The position numbers and the translations under genes are program-made. From Escherichia coli (lineage in GTDB: Bacteria > Pseudomonadota > Gammaproteobacteria > Enterobacterales > Enterobacteriaceae): a DNA stretch of 64,000 bases. Each line of letters begins with the position of its first letter. The first letter of the stretch is position 1. The stretch is taken from assembly GCF_030013595.1 (NCBI RefSeq), contig NZ_CP122768.1; one strand, written 5' to 3'. The notes beneath the pieces were generated by a model that saw only the letters and a list, made by a program, of their open reading frames with translations, ran no database searches and had not been told where the DNA came from. This document shows positions 24,271 through 32,539 of the stretch, piece by piece.

Positions 24271-25485
24271 TTACCCACCCGGAGCGACATTTTCCTTTAG
24301 CGAGTGATGCCGCGTTTCTTTGCGGCTGCGTAAGCCGATAAACAGTGCCAGTAAAAAGCCGATGGCAGCGATGGCGGTATCGAACCACATAATATCGGCA
24401 ATACTTCTTTGGGACAGATGAGCCGTAATCAACGGAATGGTAAATGTTGCAATACTGCCCGCACTGTAATAGATCCCTGTAGCTTTACCTTTAGCATAGG
24501 GGAAACGTTCAGCCATTAACGTCAGGCCAATTTGCACAACACCTCCAGCAGAGGTAAAACCAATGACAAAAGCAAATATTATCACCACATAAAATGTGGG
24601 ATGCAGACAGACGGTAAACAGAGCAATAAATGAGATAAAGGTGTACAGCATCAGTAATGTTGTTGGGCGAACGGTATTACGAATGAGTGGAGCGGTAATA
24701 AATACACAAAGCAGCGAACCCACGGTGTAGATACTAAGTAGTTTGATCGACATAGTGTATGACATGCCTGCAACAAATTGTCCGTACTGTGCCAGCCACT
24801 GGCTAACCAGATAAAACGTTGCCATTGAGATATAGCCATATAAGGTATAACTGGCTAAATCGATAATTGAACAGCGATGTTCCGTAGAGCTGGTGGTTTT
24901 CTTTATGACAGGTAAGCGACGACCCGGATGGGGTGGGAACGTACAACGGCATAAAAACAGAGCGTTAATAAACATAATGCCTGCGGCAATCATAAAGGAC
25001 CAACCGAACCACAGTTCAGCCCACACTAACAGGATGATGATTAGCGGTAATAAAAATTGTCCGCTGGAAACAAATGCTTTAATTAAAATATTGGCTGTCC
25101 CCGGTGAGCGTGGAAAAGCTTCCATCAAACTGGGATAGGTGCCTGCATCGAGAAAACTGTTTGCCATTCCCGCCAGAAAGCCAAAAACATAAGCGATAAT
25201 GATGTTATTGGTGTGCAGGATGCCAAAAAAGAAGGCCATATAGCAGCACATCCCGAGCATGATAAAAGGGCGGCGACCAAAGCGATCGGATAATAATCCT
25301 GCAAAAAGCAAGACACTTAATCGACCAATGCCCAGTGATGAGATAACTATCGAGACGCCCGCGGCATTAGTCTGCCAAAGCGTCTCCAGCGAGGCCATAT
25401 TCAGGCTCATCAAAATGACGCCCATACCATGCACCAGGTAATTAAAATACAACCCCAGTGCGGTAGGGTAATAGGGATTTTTCAT
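24271..25485 (-). CDS. ydiM: MFS transporter
   Basis: 404-aa 12-TM ORF with MFS motif DRFGRR. Confidence 0.85.
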   Translation of the reverse strand: MKNPYYPTALGLYFNYLVHGMGVILMSLNMASLETLWQTNAAGVSIVISSLGIGRLSVLLFAGLLSDRFGRRPFIMLGMCCYMAFFFGILHTNNIIIAYVFGFLAGMANSFLDAGTYPSLMEAFPRSPGTANILIKAFVSSGQFLLPLIIILLVWAELWFGWSFMIAAGIMFINALFLCRCTFPPHPGRRLPVIKKTTSSTEHRCSIIDLASYTLYGYISMATFYLVSQWLAQYGQFVAGMSYTMSIKLLSIYTVGSLLCVFITAPLIRNTVRPTTLLMLYTFISFIALFTVCLHPTFYVVIIFAFVIGFTSAGGVVQIGLTLMAERFPYAKGKATGIYYSAGSIATFTIPLITAHLSQRSIADIMWFDTAIAAIGFLLALFIGLRSRKETRHHSLKENVAPGG

Positions 25486-25584
25486 AGGTTCTACTTAGCA
25501 AAGGTGCTTTAAAAAGTGTAGCGATGTTGTGTCAGTATCCGTTCATTATTGTTGTAACAACGACAATTCCTTTCTGTGGAGAAA

Positions 25585-25941: not shown

Positions 25942-26079
25942 CGTGTAATGGCTGCATGAAATAAACAATAAAATATAAATAACATTATCAGCCTGCTGAC
26001 GGCTTGAAGAGAGTCACAGTATCTTGTGCAACATTATTGGAAAGCGTGAGGGGCGAGGTAGCGAAGCGGAAAAATGTTA

Positions 26080-26184
26080 AAAAAAAGCCCATCGTGGGAG
26101 ATGGGCAAAGACTACACACAGCAATTCGTTGTTTCACTCAGGGGATTTCCATGCTTATAAATCAATATGTTGATTTATAACCGT
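26080..26184 (-). ncRNA. rprA: small regulatory RNA RprA
   Basis: Minus-strand sequence matches RprA as I remember it (ACGGTTATAAATCAACATATTGATTTATAAGCATGG...CCCATCTCCCACGATGGGCTTTTTTT), ending in a terminator hairpin and U-run. Confidence 0.85.
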
Positions 26185-26369: not shown

Positions 26370-27482
26370 TTACTTATTCGATTTCTCGATTTCGCCAAGT
26401 TCTTCGAGAATTTCTTCCGGTTGGTCCGTCGGCGGTGGGACTTCTTCCACCCACGCGGCAAAAAGACGCCAGGAAACGGCTAACAGAACCGGACCAATAA
26501 ACAGGCCGATCATCCCGAAAGCAATCAAACCACCAATAACGCCAGAGAGGATCAGGATCAGCGGTAAATCGGCACCCATGCGAATTAACATTGGGCGGAT
26601 GACGTTATCCAGCGTGCCAACCACACCGCTCCACACTAACAATACCGTTCCCCAGGTGGTATCGCCAGTCCAGTAGAGCCAGATAATCGCCGGAATCAGT
26701 ACCGGCAACGGTCCAAGCTGGACAAGGCAGGAGAGGATCATCAACACCGTTAGCAAAGTTGCATAAGGTACGCCGGATACGGCGAGGCCGATACCGCCAA
26801 GCACTGCCTGTACTAACGCCGTCACCACCACACCCAGCGCCACCGCGCGGATAGCCTGTGCCGCCAGCAGCACGGCGGCATCACCGCGAACGCCTGCCAG
26901 ACGGGTTGCAAAATGGCGAATGCCTTGTGCCACCTGTTCACCGCGCCAGTACAGCAGGGCACTGAAGAGAAGCATCAGCGCACAATGCACCATAAAGCGC
27001 CCGATATGCGCCGCCTGCCCAACGAACCAGGTGGTGGTGGTGCCAATATAAGGACGGACTTTCGCCATGATCGCCGTACCCCCCATATCCAGCAAGTTGT
27101 GCCAGCCTGCATATAGCTTCGCGCCAATCACCGGAATGGTATTAAGCCACGCCAGATCGGGTAATGTCATGTCACCGCTGGAAATGGCTTTAATTAGCGG
27201 ACCGCTGCCGTCGACGATACTGTTAACCAGCAAGGCAATAGGGATGATAAACACCATCACTAATAACAGCGTCATCACCAGAACGGCGAGAGAGCGGCGA
27301 CCAAACATGATCTTTTGCAAACGTAACAATACCGGCCAGGTGGCGATAACCACCGTACCAGCCCATGCAAAGCCGAGAATAAAGGGTTGTACAATCCACA
27401 GACATGCCACAATCATGATGGCTAAAAAGAGCACCGAAAGCAGAATTTGTGCGACATCCCTGGGCTGACGAACATTTACCAT
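26370..27482 (-). CDS. ydiK: AI-2E/PerM-family inner-membrane transporter
   Basis: 370-aa polytopic ORF recognised as YdiK. Confidence 0.85.
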   Translation of the reverse strand: MVNVRQPRDVAQILLSVLFLAIMIVACLWIVQPFILGFAWAGTVVIATWPVLLRLQKIMFGRRSLAVLVMTLLLVMVFIIPIALLVNSIVDGSGPLIKAISSGDMTLPDLAWLNTIPVIGAKLYAGWHNLLDMGGTAIMAKVRPYIGTTTTWFVGQAAHIGRFMVHCALMLLFSALLYWRGEQVAQGIRHFATRLAGVRGDAAVLLAAQAIRAVALGVVVTALVQAVLGGIGLAVSGVPYATLLTVLMILSCLVQLGPLPVLIPAIIWLYWTGDTTWGTVLLVWSGVVGTLDNVIRPMLIRMGADLPLILILSGVIGGLIAFGMIGLFIGPVLLAVSWRLFAAWVEEVPPPTDQPEEILEELGEIEKSNK

Positions 27483-27870
27483 AACTACTTTTCACCTTTT
27501 TTGTGCGTCAAATCGTCGACGCGACGTGAACACGCGAAACTCACCTGCATAATGATGAGCAATTTCAGCGGTTTTTAACAGGCCGATTCTGCCCTTAATT
27601 CTGATGGGCGTGTTAGAAAAAAATGTGGTACAACAACTCAGGCAACACGCAAACGATTTACTCGTCGTATTTCAAGTTGCATATGCTGCGGCTACGTTCG
27701 TTCACCCCAGTTACTTACTGTTGTAAGCTCCTGGAGTTCACTCGCTTGCCGCCTTTCTGCAACACGAAATCCATAGAGTAAACAAACATCACCTTTCAGT
27801 GCGCTATTGCAGCAGCCTGAAAGAATAGTGTATCGACCTACATCACAGACCGCAGGAAAGGGTCAATATA

Positions 27871-30800
27871 ATGATTCCACAGATTTCCCAGGCACCCGGC
27901 GTCGTTCAACTGGTGCTTAATTTTTTGCAAGAGCTGGAGCAACAGGGGTTTACCGGCGATACGGCGACAAGTTATGCCGATCGTCTGACAATGTCGACCG
28001 ACAACAGTATTTACCAACTTCTCCCCGATGCGGTGGTATTTCCGCGTTCAACCGCAGATGTGGCGCTGATCGCCCGTCTTGCCGCGCAGGAACGCTATTC
28101 ATCGCTGATCTTTACCCCCCGCGGCGGCGGCACCGGCACTAACGGTCAGGCGCTCAACCAGGGGATTATTGTTGATATGTCCCGCCATATGAACCGCATC
28201 ATCGAAATTAACCCTGAAGAGGGCTGGGTGCGCGTTGAGGCCGGGGTGATAAAAGACCAACTCAATCAGTACCTGAAACCGTTCGGCTACTTTTTTGCAC
28301 CAGAACTTTCGACCAGCAACCGGGCAACGCTCGGCGGGATGATCAATACCGATGCATCCGGTCAGGGATCGCTGGTCTATGGCAAAACGTCAGATCACGT
28401 ACTTAGCGTACGTGCAGTGTTGTTGGGGGGCGATATTCTCGATACGCAACCTTTACCCGTCGAACTGGCGGAAACGCTGGGTAAATCCAATACCACAATC
28501 GGGCGAATTTATAACACGGTTTATCAACGTTGCCGTCAGCAACGCCAGTTAATCATCGACAACTTCCCCAAACTTAACCGCTTTCTTACCGGTTACGATC
28601 TGCGTCATGTCTTTAACGACGAGATGACCGAGTTTGACCTGACGCGCATTCTGACGGGTTCAGAAGGGACGCTGGCCTTTATTACCGAAGCGCGGCTGGA
28701 TATTACGCGCTTGCCTAAAGTGCGCCGTCTGGTGAACGTCAAATATGACTCTTTTGACTCTGCGCTGCGTAACGCGCCGTTTATGGTTGAGGCGCGGGCG
28801 CTTTCGGTAGAGACGGTGGACTCAAAAGTGCTGAATCTGGCGCGGGAAGATATTGTCTGGCATTCCGTCAGCGAGTTGATTACCGATGTGCCTGACAAAG
28901 AGATGCTCGGGCTGAACATTGTGGAATTTGCTGGTGATGATGAGACGCTGATTGATGAGCGGGTAAATGCACTCTGTGCGCGGTTGGATGAACTGATTGC
29001 CAGCCAACAGGCAGGTGTGATTGGCTGGCAGGTGTGCCGCGAACTGGCGGGTGTTGAACGTATCTATGCGATGCGCAAAAAAGCCGTTGGTCTGCTTGGC
29101 AATGCCAAAGGTGCAGCCAAGCCAATTCCGTTTGCTGAGGATACCTGCGTACCGCCGGAACATCTGGCAGATTATATTGCTGAATTTCGCGCGCTGCTCG
29201 ACAGCCACGGCTTAAGCTACGGTATGTTCGGTCACGTCGACGCAGGTGTCTTGCACGTCCGTCCGGCACTGGATATGTGCGATCCACAACAAGAGATTTT
29301 GATGAAACAAATCTCTGATGACGTGGTGGCGCTGACTGCGAAATACGGTGGCTTGTTGTGGGGCGAGCACGGCAAAGGTTTTCGCGCTGAATACAGCCCG
29401 GCGTTTTTCGGTGAGGAACTTTTTGCAGAACTGCGCAAAGTGAAAGCGGCATTTGACCCGCATAACCGACTCAACCCAGGGAAGATTTGCCCGCCAGAAG
29501 GTCTCGATGCGCCGATGATGAAAGTGGACGCGGTGAAGCGCGGTACATTCGATCGGCAGATCCCCATTGCGGTACGCCAGCAGTGGCGTGGTGCGATGGA
29601 GTGTAACGGCAACGGTTTATGCTTCAACTTTGATGCCCGTAGTCCGATGTGTCCGTCGATGAAGATCACCCAGAACCGGATTCATTCACCGAAAGGGCGC
29701 GCAACGCTGGTGCGTGAATGGCTGCGCTTGTTGGCGGATCGCGGCGTTGACCCACTCAAACTGGAACAAGAACTGCCTGAATCCGGCGTCAGTTTACGGA
29801 CGTTAATTGCCCGCACGCGCAATAGCTGGCATGCGAATAAAGGCGAATACGACTTCTCACACGAAGTCAAAGAGGCTATGTCGGGCTGTCTGGCCTGTAA
29901 AGCGTGTTCGACCCAGTGCCCTATCAAAATTGATGTGCCGGAGTTTCGCTCTCGTTTTCTGCAGCTCTATCACACCCGTTATTTACGCCCGCTTCGCGAC
30001 CACCTCGTTGCTACGGTCGAGAGCTACGCACCGCTGATGGCACGCGCGCCGAAAACCTTTAACTTCTTCATTAACCAGCCGCTGGTGCGCAAACTCTCGG
30101 AAAAACATATCGGCATGGTTGATTTGCCACTGCTGTCAGTCCCCTCGCTACAACAACAAATGGTGGGGCATCGCTCGGCAAACATGACGCTGGAACAGCT
30201 TGAAGCTCTCAATGCAGAGCAGAAAGCGCGCACGGTGTTGGTGGTGCAGGACCCCTTTACCAGCTATTACGATGCGCAAGTGGTGGCGGATTTTGTCCGT
30301 CTGGTCGAAAAATTAGGTTTCCAGCCTGTGTTGCTGCCATTTTCGCCAAATGGTAAAGCCCAGCATATCAAAGGCTTTCTTAATCGTTTTGCGAAGACGG
30401 CGAAAAAGACGGCGGATTTCCTCAACCGTATGGCGAAGCTGGGGATGCCAATGGTGGGCGTCGATCCGGCGCTGGTACTTTGTTATCGCGATGAATATAA
30501 ACTGGCGCTGGGCGAGGAACGTGGCGAGTTTAACGTATTACTGGCGAATGAATGGCTGGCAAGCGCACTTGACTCACAGCCAGTGGCTACAGTCAGCGGT
30601 GAATCATGGTATTTCTTTGGTCACTGTACCGAAGTTACCGCTTTGCCGGGCGCGCCAGCACAATGGGCCGCGATATTTGCCCGTTTTGGCGCGAAACTGG
30701 AAAATGTCAGCGTGGGTTGCTGCGGCATGGCAGGGACTTACGGACATGAAGCGAAAAACCATAAAAATTCGCTCGGGATCTATGAGTTATCCTGGCATCA

Positions 30801-30927
30801 GGCGATGCAGCGACTGCCGCGTAATCGCTGTCTGGCGACCGGATATTCCTGCCGTAGCCAGGTAAAACGGGTCGAAGGCACGGGGGTACGCCATCCTGTG
30901 CAGGCTTTACTGGAGATTATTAAATGA
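27871..30927 (+). CDS. ydiJ: large FAD-linked oxidoreductase with Fe-S/Cys-rich C-terminal domains
   Basis: 1018-aa ORF recognised as YdiJ; start overlaps nothing upstream, stop overlaps menI start by 4 bp. Confidence 0.9.
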   Translation: MIPQISQAPGVVQLVLNFLQELEQQGFTGDTATSYADRLTMSTDNSIYQLLPDAVVFPRSTADVALIARLAAQERYSSLIFTPRGGGTGTNGQALNQGIIVDMSRHMNRIIEINPEEGWVRVEAGVIKDQLNQYLKPFGYFFAPELSTSNRATLGGMINTDASGQGSLVYGKTSDHVLSVRAVLLGGDILDTQPLPVELAETLGKSNTTIGRIYNTVYQRCRQQRQLIIDNFPKLNRFLTGYDLRHVFNDEMTEFDLTRILTGSEGTLAFITEARLDITRLPKVRRLVNVKYDSFDSALRNAPFMVEARALSVETVDSKVLNLAREDIVWHSVSELITDVPDKEMLGLNIVEFAGDDETLIDERVNALCARLDELIASQQAGVIGWQVCRELAGVERIYAMRKKAVGLLGNAKGAAKPIPFAEDTCVPPEHLADYIAEFRALLDSHGLSYGMFGHVDAGVLHVRPALDMCDPQQEILMKQISDDVVALTAKYGGLLWGEHGKGFRAEYSPAFFGEELFAELRKVKAAFDPHNRLNPGKICPPEGLDAPMMKVDAVKRGTFDRQIPIAVRQQWRGAMECNGNGLCFNFDARSPMCPSMKITQNRIHSPKGRATLVREWLRLLADRGVDPLKLEQELPESGVSLRTLIARTRNSWHANKGEYDFSHEVKEAMSGCLACKACSTQCPIKIDVPEFRSRFLQLYHTRYLRPLRDHLVATVESYAPLMARAPKTFNFFINQPLVRKLSEKHIGMVDLPLLSVPSLQQQMVGHRSANMTLEQLEALNAEQKARTVLVVQDPFTSYYDAQVVADFVRLVEKLGFQPVLLPFSPNGKAQHIKGFLNRFAKTAKKTADFLNRMAKLGMPMVGVDPALVLCYRDEYKLALGEERGEFNVLLANEWLASALDSQPVATVSGESWYFFGHCTEVTALPGAPAQWAAIFARFGAKLENVSVGCCGMAGTYGHEAKNHKNSLGIYELSWHQAMQRLPRNRCLATGYSCRSQVKRVEGTGVRHPVQALLEIIK

Positions 30928-31334
30928 TATGGAAACGAAAAATCACCCTGGAAGCACTGAATGCCATGGGTGAAGGAAACATGGTGGGGTTACTGGATAT
31001 TCGCTTTGAACATATTGGTGATGACACCCTTGAAGCGACAATGCCAGTAGACTCGCGAACAAAGCAGCCTTTCGGGTTGCTGCATGGAGGGGCATCCGTG
31101 GTACTGGCCGAAAGTATCGGTTCCGTTGCCGGTTATTTATGTACCGAAGGTGAGCAAAAGGTGGTTGGCCTGGAAATCAATGCTAACCACGTCCGCTCGG
31201 CACGAGAAGGGCGGGTACGCGGCGTATGCAAACCGTTGCATCTCGGTTCGCGTCACCAGGTCTGGCAGATTGAAATCTTCGATGAGAAAGGGCGTTTGTA
31301 CTGTTCGTCACGATTGACGACCGCGATTTTGTGA
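30924..31334 (+). CDS. menI: 1,4-dihydroxy-2-naphthoyl-CoA thioesterase (hotdog fold)
   Basis: 136-aa ORF recognised as MenI/YdiI. Confidence 0.9.
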   Translation: MIWKRKITLEALNAMGEGNMVGLLDIRFEHIGDDTLEATMPVDSRTKQPFGLLHGGASVVLAESIGSVAGYLCTEGEQKVVGLEINANHVRSAREGRVRGVCKPLHLGSRHQVWQIEIFDEKGRLYCSSRLTTAIL

Positions 31335-31436
31335 CGTTGTCACCAGAAAAGTGTGACGCATATTGCTTTTGGTCATTATCTGCACAGTAAACGGTGGTAT
31401 ACTGTGCAGGTCTTGTCTAAAAGCGAGGATGCTATG

Positions 31437-31622
31437 TCTACTCAACTTGATCCCACCCAGCTGGCCATTGAATTTTTACGCCGTGACCAGAGCAATCTTT
31501 CACCTGCCCAATATCTCAAACGTCTGAAACAACTAGAACTTGAATTTGCTGACCTGCTTACTCTCTCTTCTGCTGAATTAAAAGAAGAAATCTACTTTGC
31601 CTGGCGTCTGGGCGTGCATTGA
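31437..31622 (+). CDS. ydiH: small uncharacterised protein
   Basis: 62-aa ORF (MSTQLDPTQLAIEFL...) inside the 89-aa track ORF. Confidence 0.65.
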   Translation, partial: STQLDPTQLAIEFLRRDQSNLSPAQYLKRLKQLELEFADLLTLSSAELKEEIYFAWRLGVH

Positions 31623-31821
31623 TCCTGACTTAATGCTGCAATTTCGCCAAATCGACCTGGATTAACCTCCGTCCAGGTTCGATAACCTTCTTAATACTGC
31701 TTATCTAACCGCCTGATATTGTTCAAAAATAATACTAATCGCAGTTTGTGTTAAAACGACGGCTTAGCTTTATGAGATTATTCTTATCGCCCCTTCAAGA
31801 GCTAAGCCACTGAGAGTGCCG

Positions 31822-31889
31822 GAGATAAGCGCCGGATGGGGTAGAAACCCTTAAGCCTGTGTCGCACAGACTTAAGGGTTTTCTTATTT
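31822..31889 (+). ncRNA. candidate small RNA ending in a strong intrinsic terminator (possibly RydB)
   Basis: Hairpin cccttaagcctgtg-tcg-cacagacttaaggg plus U-run at 31848-31889, about 225 bp after ydiH; K-12 has RydB between ydiH and sufA; 5' end not determinable here. Confidence 0.35.
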
Positions 31890-31975
31890 CTGAACGCTGC
31901 ACTTTTTTACCTATCTCTTAAATAGTCATTTTCAATACAACTTTTTCTTTTTCATCACAGCCTTAATGCTCCTTA

Positions 31976-31991
31976 GATAATAATCATTATC
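31976..31991 (+). promoter_or_regulatory. distal Fur-box-like (or IHF-like) motif upstream of sufA
   Basis: gataataatcattatc, near-perfect match to Fur consensus core, about 195 bp upstream of sufA ATG. Confidence 0.3.
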
Positions 31992-32111
31992 TAACAATGA
32001 GATACCTAATTCTTAGCGTGCCTGTTAACCCACACATCAGGGTCTATGCTTATTAAAAGCAAGAAAAAAGCATGTTTTACGGTAAAGCCCCTGCGTTTGC
32101 TGGGTTGAACT

Positions 32112-32126
32112 GATAATCATTATCAC
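32112..32126 (+). promoter_or_regulatory. Fur box at the suf operon promoter
   Basis: gataatcattatcac about 45 bp upstream of sufA ATG; suf operon is Fur-repressed in K-12. Confidence 0.6.
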
Positions 32127-32170
32127 TAACATGCTGTTATACGCTGAAAGCGATGAAGTGAGGTAAATCG

Positions 32171-32539
32171 ATGGACATGCATTCAGGAACCTTTAATCCA
32201 CAGGATTTCGCCTGGCAGGGCTTAACGCTGACACCCGCAGCCGCTGTCCACATACGCGAGCTGGTGGCAAAGCAGCCGGGTATGGTCGGCGTGCGCTTAG
32301 GCGTGAAGCAAACGGGCTGCGCGGGCTTTGGCTATGTGCTCGACAGTGTTAGCGAGCCGGACAAAGACGATCTGCTGTTTGAACACGACGGTGCGAAGCT
32401 GTTTGTCCCGCTGCAAGCGATGCCGTTTATTGATGGCACGGAAGTCGATTTCGTTCGTGAAGGACTTAATCAGATATTCAAATTTCACAACCCTAAAGCC
32501 CAGAATGAATGTGGCTGTGGCGAAAGCTTTGGGGTATAG
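32171..32539 (+). CDS. sufA: Fe-S cluster A-type carrier
   Basis: 122-aa ORF with C-terminal CGCGESF motif. Confidence 0.95.

Follow-up and report, generated by a model that had tools for sequence, protein, structure and literature searches.

YdiJ and the oxidation of D-2-hydroxyglutarate

D-2-Hydroxyglutarate (D-2-HG), which arises as a by-product of serine synthesis, is also known as an oncometabolite. Knockouts of ydiJ in E. coli and Pantoea build up D-2-HG, to grams per litre (Samsonov et al. 2022, PMC9504171), and purified YdiJ is a homotetramer of ~440 kDa that is strictly specific for D-2-HG, with a Km of 83 μM (PMC9504171). More recent work identified SerA as the source of D-2-HG and found that deletion of either the GlcD part or the GlpC part of YdiJ abolishes its function in vivo, both parts being indispensable (2025, PMC12297413). 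The Pseudomonas putida orthologue, PP_4493, has been linked to the oxidation and removal of D-2-HG by fitness profiling, and YdiJ purified earlier held FAD and a [4Fe-4S] cluster. YdiJ-type enzymes are attractive in that they may oxidize D-2-HG without an ETF relay. We analysed a stretch of 64,000 nucleotides from E. coli (assembly GCF_030013595.1, contig NZ_CP122768.1; hereafter the window), in which a preliminary description had identified a copy of ydiJ. This gene very probably codes for a D-2-HG dehydrogenase (D2HGDH) that is soluble or peripheral and combines FAD with iron-sulfur (Fe-S) in one polypeptide, and for which an electron wiring is proposed below. The gene forms with menI a two-gene operon next to which ydiH has its own promoter.

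The window carries an intact E. coli ydiJ gene

The open reading frame (ORF) at 27871..30927 (+) is single and uninterrupted, starts with ATG and encodes 1018 amino acids (aa), as read from the ORF list and the sequence. Its product reached 1727.6 bits on the NCBIfam equivalog NF049975, "D-2-hydroxyglutarate dehydrogenase YdiJ" (cut-off 1350), residues 1-1016 aligning with model positions 1-1017 of 1018. It is identical at 1011 of 1018 positions (99%) to K-12 YdiJ (b1687), which is annotated as a D2HGDH. The seven substitutions (S179G, K343Q, T359A, Q379H, A779S, D901E and K965E) are conservative, and none of them falls in a family-invariant column. The preliminary description had thus given the ORF, its coordinates and its motifs correctly and had rightly named the protein YdiJ; it had also called it a 2-hydroxyglutarate dehydrogenase-type enzyme, and the published activity is that of a D-specific one (PMC9504171). 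ydiJ is a known core gene of E. coli, named in RefSeq and characterized between 2022 and 2025. The gene of the window is an ordinary intact copy of it, and nothing contradicts its identity or its D2HGDH function. It shares its flanks with K-12 ydiJ (b1687, P77748), namely a divergent ydiK upstream and menI, ydiH, rydB and sufA downstream, as well as the same ATGA overlap.

All but three of the 5426 complete E. coli genomes (5423) contain a 4.2-kb region comprising the locus, with the annotation ydiJ-menI-ydiH. It is at least 99% identical in only eight of them, and the DNA of ydiJ is 97.9% identical to that of K-12; the window therefore stems from a less-sampled E. coli lineage.

A flavin domain with a conserved metal site

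The N-terminal half had been described as a FAD-type oxidase, and Pfam indeed matched both FAD_binding_4 and FAD-oxidase_C to it (Table 1). Residues H455, H462, E499 and H500 are invariant across 76 aligned relatives, and this His/Glu site lines up with the metal site found in human D2HGDH (6lpn) and mouse LDHD (8jdc), GHxxDGxLH...EHG. In an AF2 model of the full-length protein (pLDDT 95.5, pTM 0.94), the fold of this half can be superposed on those of LDHD, LctD and human D2HGDH, at target-normalised TM-scores of 0.83-0.88 (Foldseek). GlcD models match the N-terminal half only. None of its six cysteines is conserved in an alignment of 126 relatives sharing 34-58% identity with YdiJ. The N-terminal half is a VAO-fold flavin domain of the GlcD/D-lactate dehydrogenase/D2HGDH type, with a conserved His-His-Glu metal site.

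A trimmed iron-sulfur module with 11 invariant cysteines

YdiJ contains 19 cysteines, of which exactly 11 are fully or almost fully conserved in the same 126-sequence alignment: C578, C584, C594, C673, C676, C679, C683, C919, C950, C951 and C994. C871 and C987 are not conserved. A search of 1.84 billion cluster representatives yielded 2169 clusters at E ≤ 1e-30, with more than 100 full-length fused relatives of 34-58% identity.

The conserved cysteines lie in two types of motif. The sequence CLACKACSTQCP (residues 673-684) is the one complete CxxCxxCxxxCP motif of the protein, not one of two: the first motif reads C584-FNFDARSPM-C594-P and belongs to a looser group, C578-x5-C584-x9-C594-P. Together, they are covered by a match to Pfam Fer4_8 (residues 577-687) that lies just over the gathering score (28.6 versus 27 bits). 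The CCG triplet, at residues 950-952, falls in the second of two CCG-like domains recognized by alignment with GlpC and GlcF. This second domain keeps four of the five cysteines (the first C, the CC pair and the last C of CxxC), which are invariant in 124-125 of the 126 relatives, and its fold matches HdrB and EtfD. In the first domain all motif cysteines of GlpC/GlcF are replaced, QDPF and PNGKAQ standing where GlpC has GC and KCCG. YdiJ has therefore one functional CCG domain and one cysteine-less relic.

These losses bear on the domain search that the preliminary description had suggested as a check. FAD_binding_4 and FAD-oxidase_C were found as expected, but Pfam CCG (PF02754) gave no match on YdiJ even at E ≤ 10, though it matches E. 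coli GlpC (3e-34) and GlcF (8e-31). It fails because of the cysteines lost from the first ferredoxin motif and from the CCG domains, including the cysteine-less first one; model comparison indicated that the CCG fold is nevertheless present structurally. The claim of an Fe-S C-terminal half itself held, supported by the Fer4_8 match and by homology to the GlpC model PRK11168, of which positions 51-398 of 401 align with residues 664-1016 (E 1.8e-31). Since the score of 109 bits is under the cut-off of 278, YdiJ is a relative of GlpC and not GlpC itself. A sequence search of this half against the PDB returned nothing meaningful (best E-value 0.28), and its structural model had a pLDDT of 93.0. 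No membrane helix was found in the whole of YdiJ, the top 19-residue Kyte-Doolittle mean being 1.22. The C-terminal half is a trimmed electron-transfer module of the HdrD/GlpC/EtfD type, with 11 invariant cysteines and no transmembrane segment.

Proposed clusters and electron acceptor

Dicluster ferredoxins follow the rule that the CP-cysteine of one motif serves as a ligand to the cluster of the other. Accordingly, C673, C676 and C679 were grouped with C594, and would hold a cubane [4Fe-4S] cluster, while C578 and C584 were grouped with C683 in a three-cysteine site, probably an SdhB-like [3Fe-4S]. C919, C950, C951 and C994 would form a four-cysteine site, the putative equivalent of cluster D2 of EtfD. 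In EtfD, the clusters assigned to the two CCG domains are D1, a linear [3Fe-4S], and D2, a noncubane [4Fe-4S] (PMC13083937); homologues of EtfD lacking the D1 ligands are argued to take up electrons at D2, D4 being the cluster closest to the membrane (PMC13083937). YdiJ has no D1 ligands either, and its most economical wire would therefore enter at the CCG-site cluster. In the K-12 enzyme, FAD-dependent oxidation turns D-2-HG, most of which SerA forms during serine synthesis, back into 2-oxoglutarate. We propose that electrons would run from FAD to the CCG-site cluster, then to the [4Fe-4S] cluster, the three-cysteine cluster and membrane quinone. By analogy with EtfD and SdhB, this order through the clusters is the most likely one. 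Such a direct wire would dispense with the ETF/ETF-QO relay of the short D2HGDHs.

Published observations bear on this scheme in both directions. In chemoproteomic experiments, the reactivity of C673 and C683 varied with Fe-S supply, and in the case of C683 this agrees with occupation of the second site. A survey based on AlphaFold predicted that YdiJ has three clusters, two [4Fe-4S] and one [2Fe-2S]. Several points weigh against the scheme. The reactivity of C594, which we assign to the cubane cluster, showed no dependence on Fe-S, a result that does not fit neatly with this assignment. Only one [4Fe-4S] cluster is reported for aerobically purified YdiJ. The preliminary description had called the electron acceptor unclear, and rightly so: Samsonov et al. 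called the physiological acceptor unknown (PMC9504171), and direct transfer from the GlpC part to quinone was proposed on the model of PP4737, an Fe-S D-lactate dehydrogenase (PMC12297413), so that quinone as the acceptor is an unproven proposal. That YdiJ has no membrane segment to bring it to quinone also weighs against the scheme. Cluster number and type are deduced from the cysteine patterns; like the order of the clusters and the acceptor, they are to be taken as hypotheses and not as findings.

We considered the possibility that the Fe-S module does not reduce quinone directly but passes its electrons to another protein, for example a membrane protein or a carrier resembling ferredoxin or flavodoxin. 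The absence of a transmembrane or strongly hydrophobic segment would agree with this, as would the fact that the relatives of the module with solved structures (EtfD, HdrBC and the HdrDE type) all relay electrons via a haem-b membrane domain or other subunits; moreover, the published assays used artificial dyes only (PES). We judge such a partner to be unlikely and retain direct reduction of quinone as the proposed end of the wire.

Linkage of ydiJ with menI

ydiJ and menI make up a two-gene operon in which the start codon of menI overlaps the stop codon of ydiJ. The 4-bp overlap previously noted is present as ATGA at 30924-30927; it is compatible with the translational coupling that had been asserted along with it, but is not proof of it. 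To define how far this arrangement extends, 79 genome loci of YdiJ relatives (37-96% identity) were examined for their neighbours. In 14 of the 15 Enterobacterales loci, ydiJ is followed immediately by a gene for a MenI-like hotdog thioesterase; the ATGA overlap is kept in 11 loci (GGAG being present in 10 of these 11), and one locus has a TAATG overlap. Such a gene also adjoins ydiJ in three of four Pasteurellaceae loci, in Aeromonas and in one Psychromonas metagenome-assembled genome (MAG), and the adjacency persists at YdiJ identities down to ~57-63%. No adjacent menI was seen among these loci in Vibrio, Shewanella, other Alteromonadales, Pseudomonas, Halomonas or the alpha- and betaproteobacteria. 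The linkage is thus old and tight inside one gammaproteobacterial clade, but not family-wide. Outside Enterobacteriaceae, the thioesterases scored below the MenI cut-off and nearly equally on the EntH model, and on these grounds a firm MenI label was rejected for them. The divergent ydiK is a neighbour specific to Enterobacterales. In Alteromonadales and Shewanella, the PEP synthase gene ppsA directly precedes the ydiJ homologue in the same orientation (gap 31-426 bp), with ppsR further upstream; this is another conserved context than the enterobacterial one.

A functional tie to menaquinone does not follow from the linkage alone. If there were one, YdiJ might reduce (demethyl)menaquinone specifically, or supply MenD with 2-oxoglutarate, hence the co-expression of MenI. 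The conserved adjacency in Enterobacterales, Pasteurellaceae, Aeromonas and the Psychromonas MAG, with ATGA kept in 11 loci, would speak for this, and the lineages showing it all produce naphthoquinones. Yet homologues of 39-60% identity do without an adjacent menI, including those of Methylobacterium, Rhizobium and Gluconobacter besides the gammaproteobacteria listed above. Several of these hosts have ubiquinone only, so menaquinone is not a requirement of the YdiJ family. None of the other men genes lies at the ydiJ locus, and the substrate of the thioesterase is uncertain outside Enterobacteriaceae. That EtfD, the best structural relative of the C-terminal half, passes electrons to menaquinone (PMC13083937) would speak for the tie. 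A chance adjacency inherited vertically in one gammaproteobacterial clade fits the pattern equally well. Literature searches for a functional link between ydiJ and menI, or for a paper on a ydiHIJ operon, found nothing connecting both genes, and one combining D2HGDH, GlpC and quinone returned only a 2025 biosensor paper. We therefore consider a functional link to be quite improbable.

The same low probability applies to a broader proposal, in which the operon would mark a physiological coupling (a naphthoquinone-linked YdiJ in facultative anaerobes, or MenI acting on a thioester related to 2-hydroxyglutarate or 2-oxoglutarate) and the clusters would be unusual ones, with a three-cysteine exit and a four-cysteine CCG-site holding a linear [3Fe-4S] or noncubane cluster, as in EtfD. 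If true, this would let a soluble flavoenzyme reduce quinone without a membrane subunit. Finally, a glycolate or D-lactate oxidase-type enzyme with D-2-HG as a side substrate, in line with the older annotation as a "GlcD/GlpC-like oxidoreductase", is extremely improbable and this identity was rejected, since, even though GlcD, LctD and LDHD are neighbours of the N-terminal half in sequence and fold as much as D2HGDH is, the GlcD equivalogs scored far under their cut-offs (188.7 versus 567.9 and 116.7 versus 897), and the K-12 enzyme is strictly D-2-HG-specific, its knockouts accumulating grams per litre of D-2-HG (PMC9504171).

ydiH, promoters and surroundings

The preliminary description had also suggested mapping a ydiJ-menI-ydiH operon, of which the ydiJ-menI part stood and the ydiH part did not. 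ydiH starts 99 nucleotides (nt) after menI and was seen only in Escherichia and Citrobacter among the 79 loci. Shimada et al. list TTGTCA/CATATT as a constitutive RpoD promoter of ydiH and give ydiJI as a separate operon (PMC3946193); ydiH, with a promoter of its own, stands outside the tight ydiJ-menI unit. A consensus scan of 27400-32250 for promoters and terminators gave site counts that were not above the shuffled expectation (4 versus 4.8 and 5 versus 6.1). It allowed no ydiJ promoter to be assigned in this interval and detected no terminator-like site between menI and ydiH, so that read-through is possible. Among the hexamers, only those of ydiH and sufA gain support from the literature (PMC3946193), the promoter-like ATCACA-16-GATAAT upstream of sufA (31954-31981) matching the sufABCDSE hexamers listed by Shimada et al.

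The menI-ydiH gap and ydiH (31335-31622, 288 bp) are 100% identical to K-12, whereas ydiJ, menI and sufA around them are 97.3-97.9% identical. Of 5421 E. coli genomes, 4374 match this 288-bp stretch at 99% identity or more, but only 5 match the 411-bp menI next to it that closely; species-wide diversity around the 62-aa YdiH is unusually low. In the ydiH leader, a perfect 8-bp inverted repeat, CTGCACAG-N14-CTGTGCAG (31380-31409), spans a TATACT -10-like box; from Escherichia to Citrobacter, the leader is better conserved than the third codon positions of ydiH. The repeat looks like an operator and is a candidate for one. Another inverted repeat, CTTTCAG-N17-CTGAAAG (27793-27823), lies ~50 nt upstream of the ydiJ start in the divergent ydiK-ydiJ intergenic region (27483-27870, 388 bp), which has four differences from K-12 (99.0% identity).

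The suf Fe-S assembly operon is found 0.7-4.8 kb downstream of ydiJ, itself an Fe-S enzyme gene, in 11 Enterobacterales loci. Rfam placed two small RNAs where they are expected, rydB at 31789-31849 (+; 81.6 bits), beside ydiH and sufA, and RprA at 26077-26184 (-; 118.5 bits), beside ydiK and ydiL. In the nearest genome, E. coli HCP5S3_I2, an ISKpn26 transposase (IS5-like) lies between ydiM and ydiL (L001, 947-1927). No IS5 element is present near ydiL in the window (~25486-25584), where the ydiM ORF is intact (404 aa, 24271-25485).

Table 1. Features of the ydiJ locus in the window, and the neighbourhood of ydiJ homologues in other genomes
Feature	Position	Strand	Basis
Putative Shine-Dalgarno sequence AGGAAAGGG, 8 nt before the ydiJ ATG	27854..27862	+	Sequence reading; inference only
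ydiJ coding sequence, D-2-hydroxyglutarate dehydrogenase, 1018 aa	27871..30927	+	ORF; NF049975; identity to K-12; RefSeq annotation in the nearest genome
FAD_binding_4 (PF01565), residues 52-192	28024..28446	+	Pfam, 2.1e-38
FAD-oxidase_C (PF02913), substrate/cap domain, residues 281-539	28711..29487	+	Pfam, 2.9e-68
Metal/catalytic site His455, His462, Glu499, His500	29233-29370	+	Invariance and motif alignment
Ferredoxin-like dicluster module, residues 577-687	29599..29931	+	Partial motif C578-x5-C584-x9-C594-P; complete motif C673-x2-C676-x2-C679-x3-C683-P
First CCG-like alpha/beta domain, degenerate, ~residues 786-880	30226..30510	+	GlpC/GlcF alignment; fold kept
Second CCG domain, ~residues 910-1000, with C919, C950, C951, C994	30598..30870	+	GlpC/GlcF alignment; invariance; fold match
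ydiJ/menI junction: GGAG (30912-30915), 8 nt, ATGA (30924-30927)	30912..30927	+	menI start overlaps ydiJ stop by 4 bp
menI (ydiI), 136-aa hotdog-fold 1,4-dihydroxy-2-naphthoyl-CoA hydrolase	30924..31334	+	Pfam 4HBT; NCBIfam NF007631, 307 bits (cut-off 226)
Promoter-like TTGTCA-16-CATATT in the menI-ydiH gap	31337..31364	+	Consensus scan; same hexamers in PMC3946193
ydiH, 62 aa, function unknown; neighbour outside the conserved ydiJ-menI unit	31434..31622	+	Pfam PF15930, 7.9e-43; RefSeq annotation
ppsA-ydiJ neighbourhood (other genomes)	loci L021, L023, L025-L027, L032, L033, L036, L066		

Comparison with known systems

What this analysis adds to a characterized gene is a set of modest refinements: one live and one dead CCG domain, a three-cysteine site that would be SdhB-like, the taxonomic limits of the menI linkage and the independence of ydiH. 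Though incremental, the cysteine map, the analogies with EtfD and SdhB and the limits of the menI linkage make the questions of acceptor and clusters directly testable.

P. putida PP_4493 has the same fused GlcD and GlpC architecture as YdiJ and the same role in the removal of D-2-HG. YdiJ-type proteins of Pseudomonas loci are 51-52% identical to that of the window. Unlike E. coli, the loci of Pseudomonas, Marinobacterium and Amphritea have a divergent gene for a LysR-type regulator upstream and no menI; PP_4493, whose regulator is HgcR, is tied to lysine catabolism and not just to the recycling of a SerA by-product. The short D2HGDHs (human, 6lpn; P. stutzeri and P. aeruginosa) share with YdiJ the reaction, the VAO-fold domain and the His-His-Glu site, but are only ~21-25% identical to it and lack the Fe-S half of ~470 residues; they reach the quinone pool through ETF/ETF-QO (PMC12297413).

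GlpC and GlcF, which are the Fe-S subunits of anaerobic glycerol-3-phosphate dehydrogenase and of glycolate oxidase, are homologous to the whole C-terminal half (PRK11168; 18-21% identity) and, like it, contain the second of the ferredoxin motifs and the second of the CCG motifs. YdiJ differs from them in being fused to its flavoprotein, in having lost the two middle cysteines (two of four) of the first ferredoxin motif while gaining C578, in the loss of all cysteines of the first CCG domain and of the first cysteine of the final CxxC, and in a ~45-residue insertion that separates its two ferredoxin motifs. Proteins of the HdrD/EtfD type also combine a ferredoxin dicluster with a double CCG fold, but carry an N-terminal haem-b transmembrane domain, where YdiJ has instead a flavin domain. 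The ligands of D1 (linear [3Fe-4S]) in Mycobacterium smegmatis EtfD (PDB 9ojn) and in HdrD/HdrBC are lacking in YdiJ, and its D2-equivalent site has four cysteines as compared with five cysteines and a histidine in EtfD, HdrD and HdrBC; its D4-equivalent site has three cysteines. The electron donor of EtfD is ETF, whereas that of YdiJ is its fused flavin domain. Lastly, in the SdhB/FrdB type a C-x5-C-x3-C-P group is paired with CxxCxxCxxxCP, which gives one four-cysteine and one three-cysteine cluster, the latter being the [3Fe-4S] site. The first group is C578-x5-C584-x9-C594-P in YdiJ, and its C-x5-C...CP pattern may resemble the [3Fe-4S] group of SdhB and FrdB.

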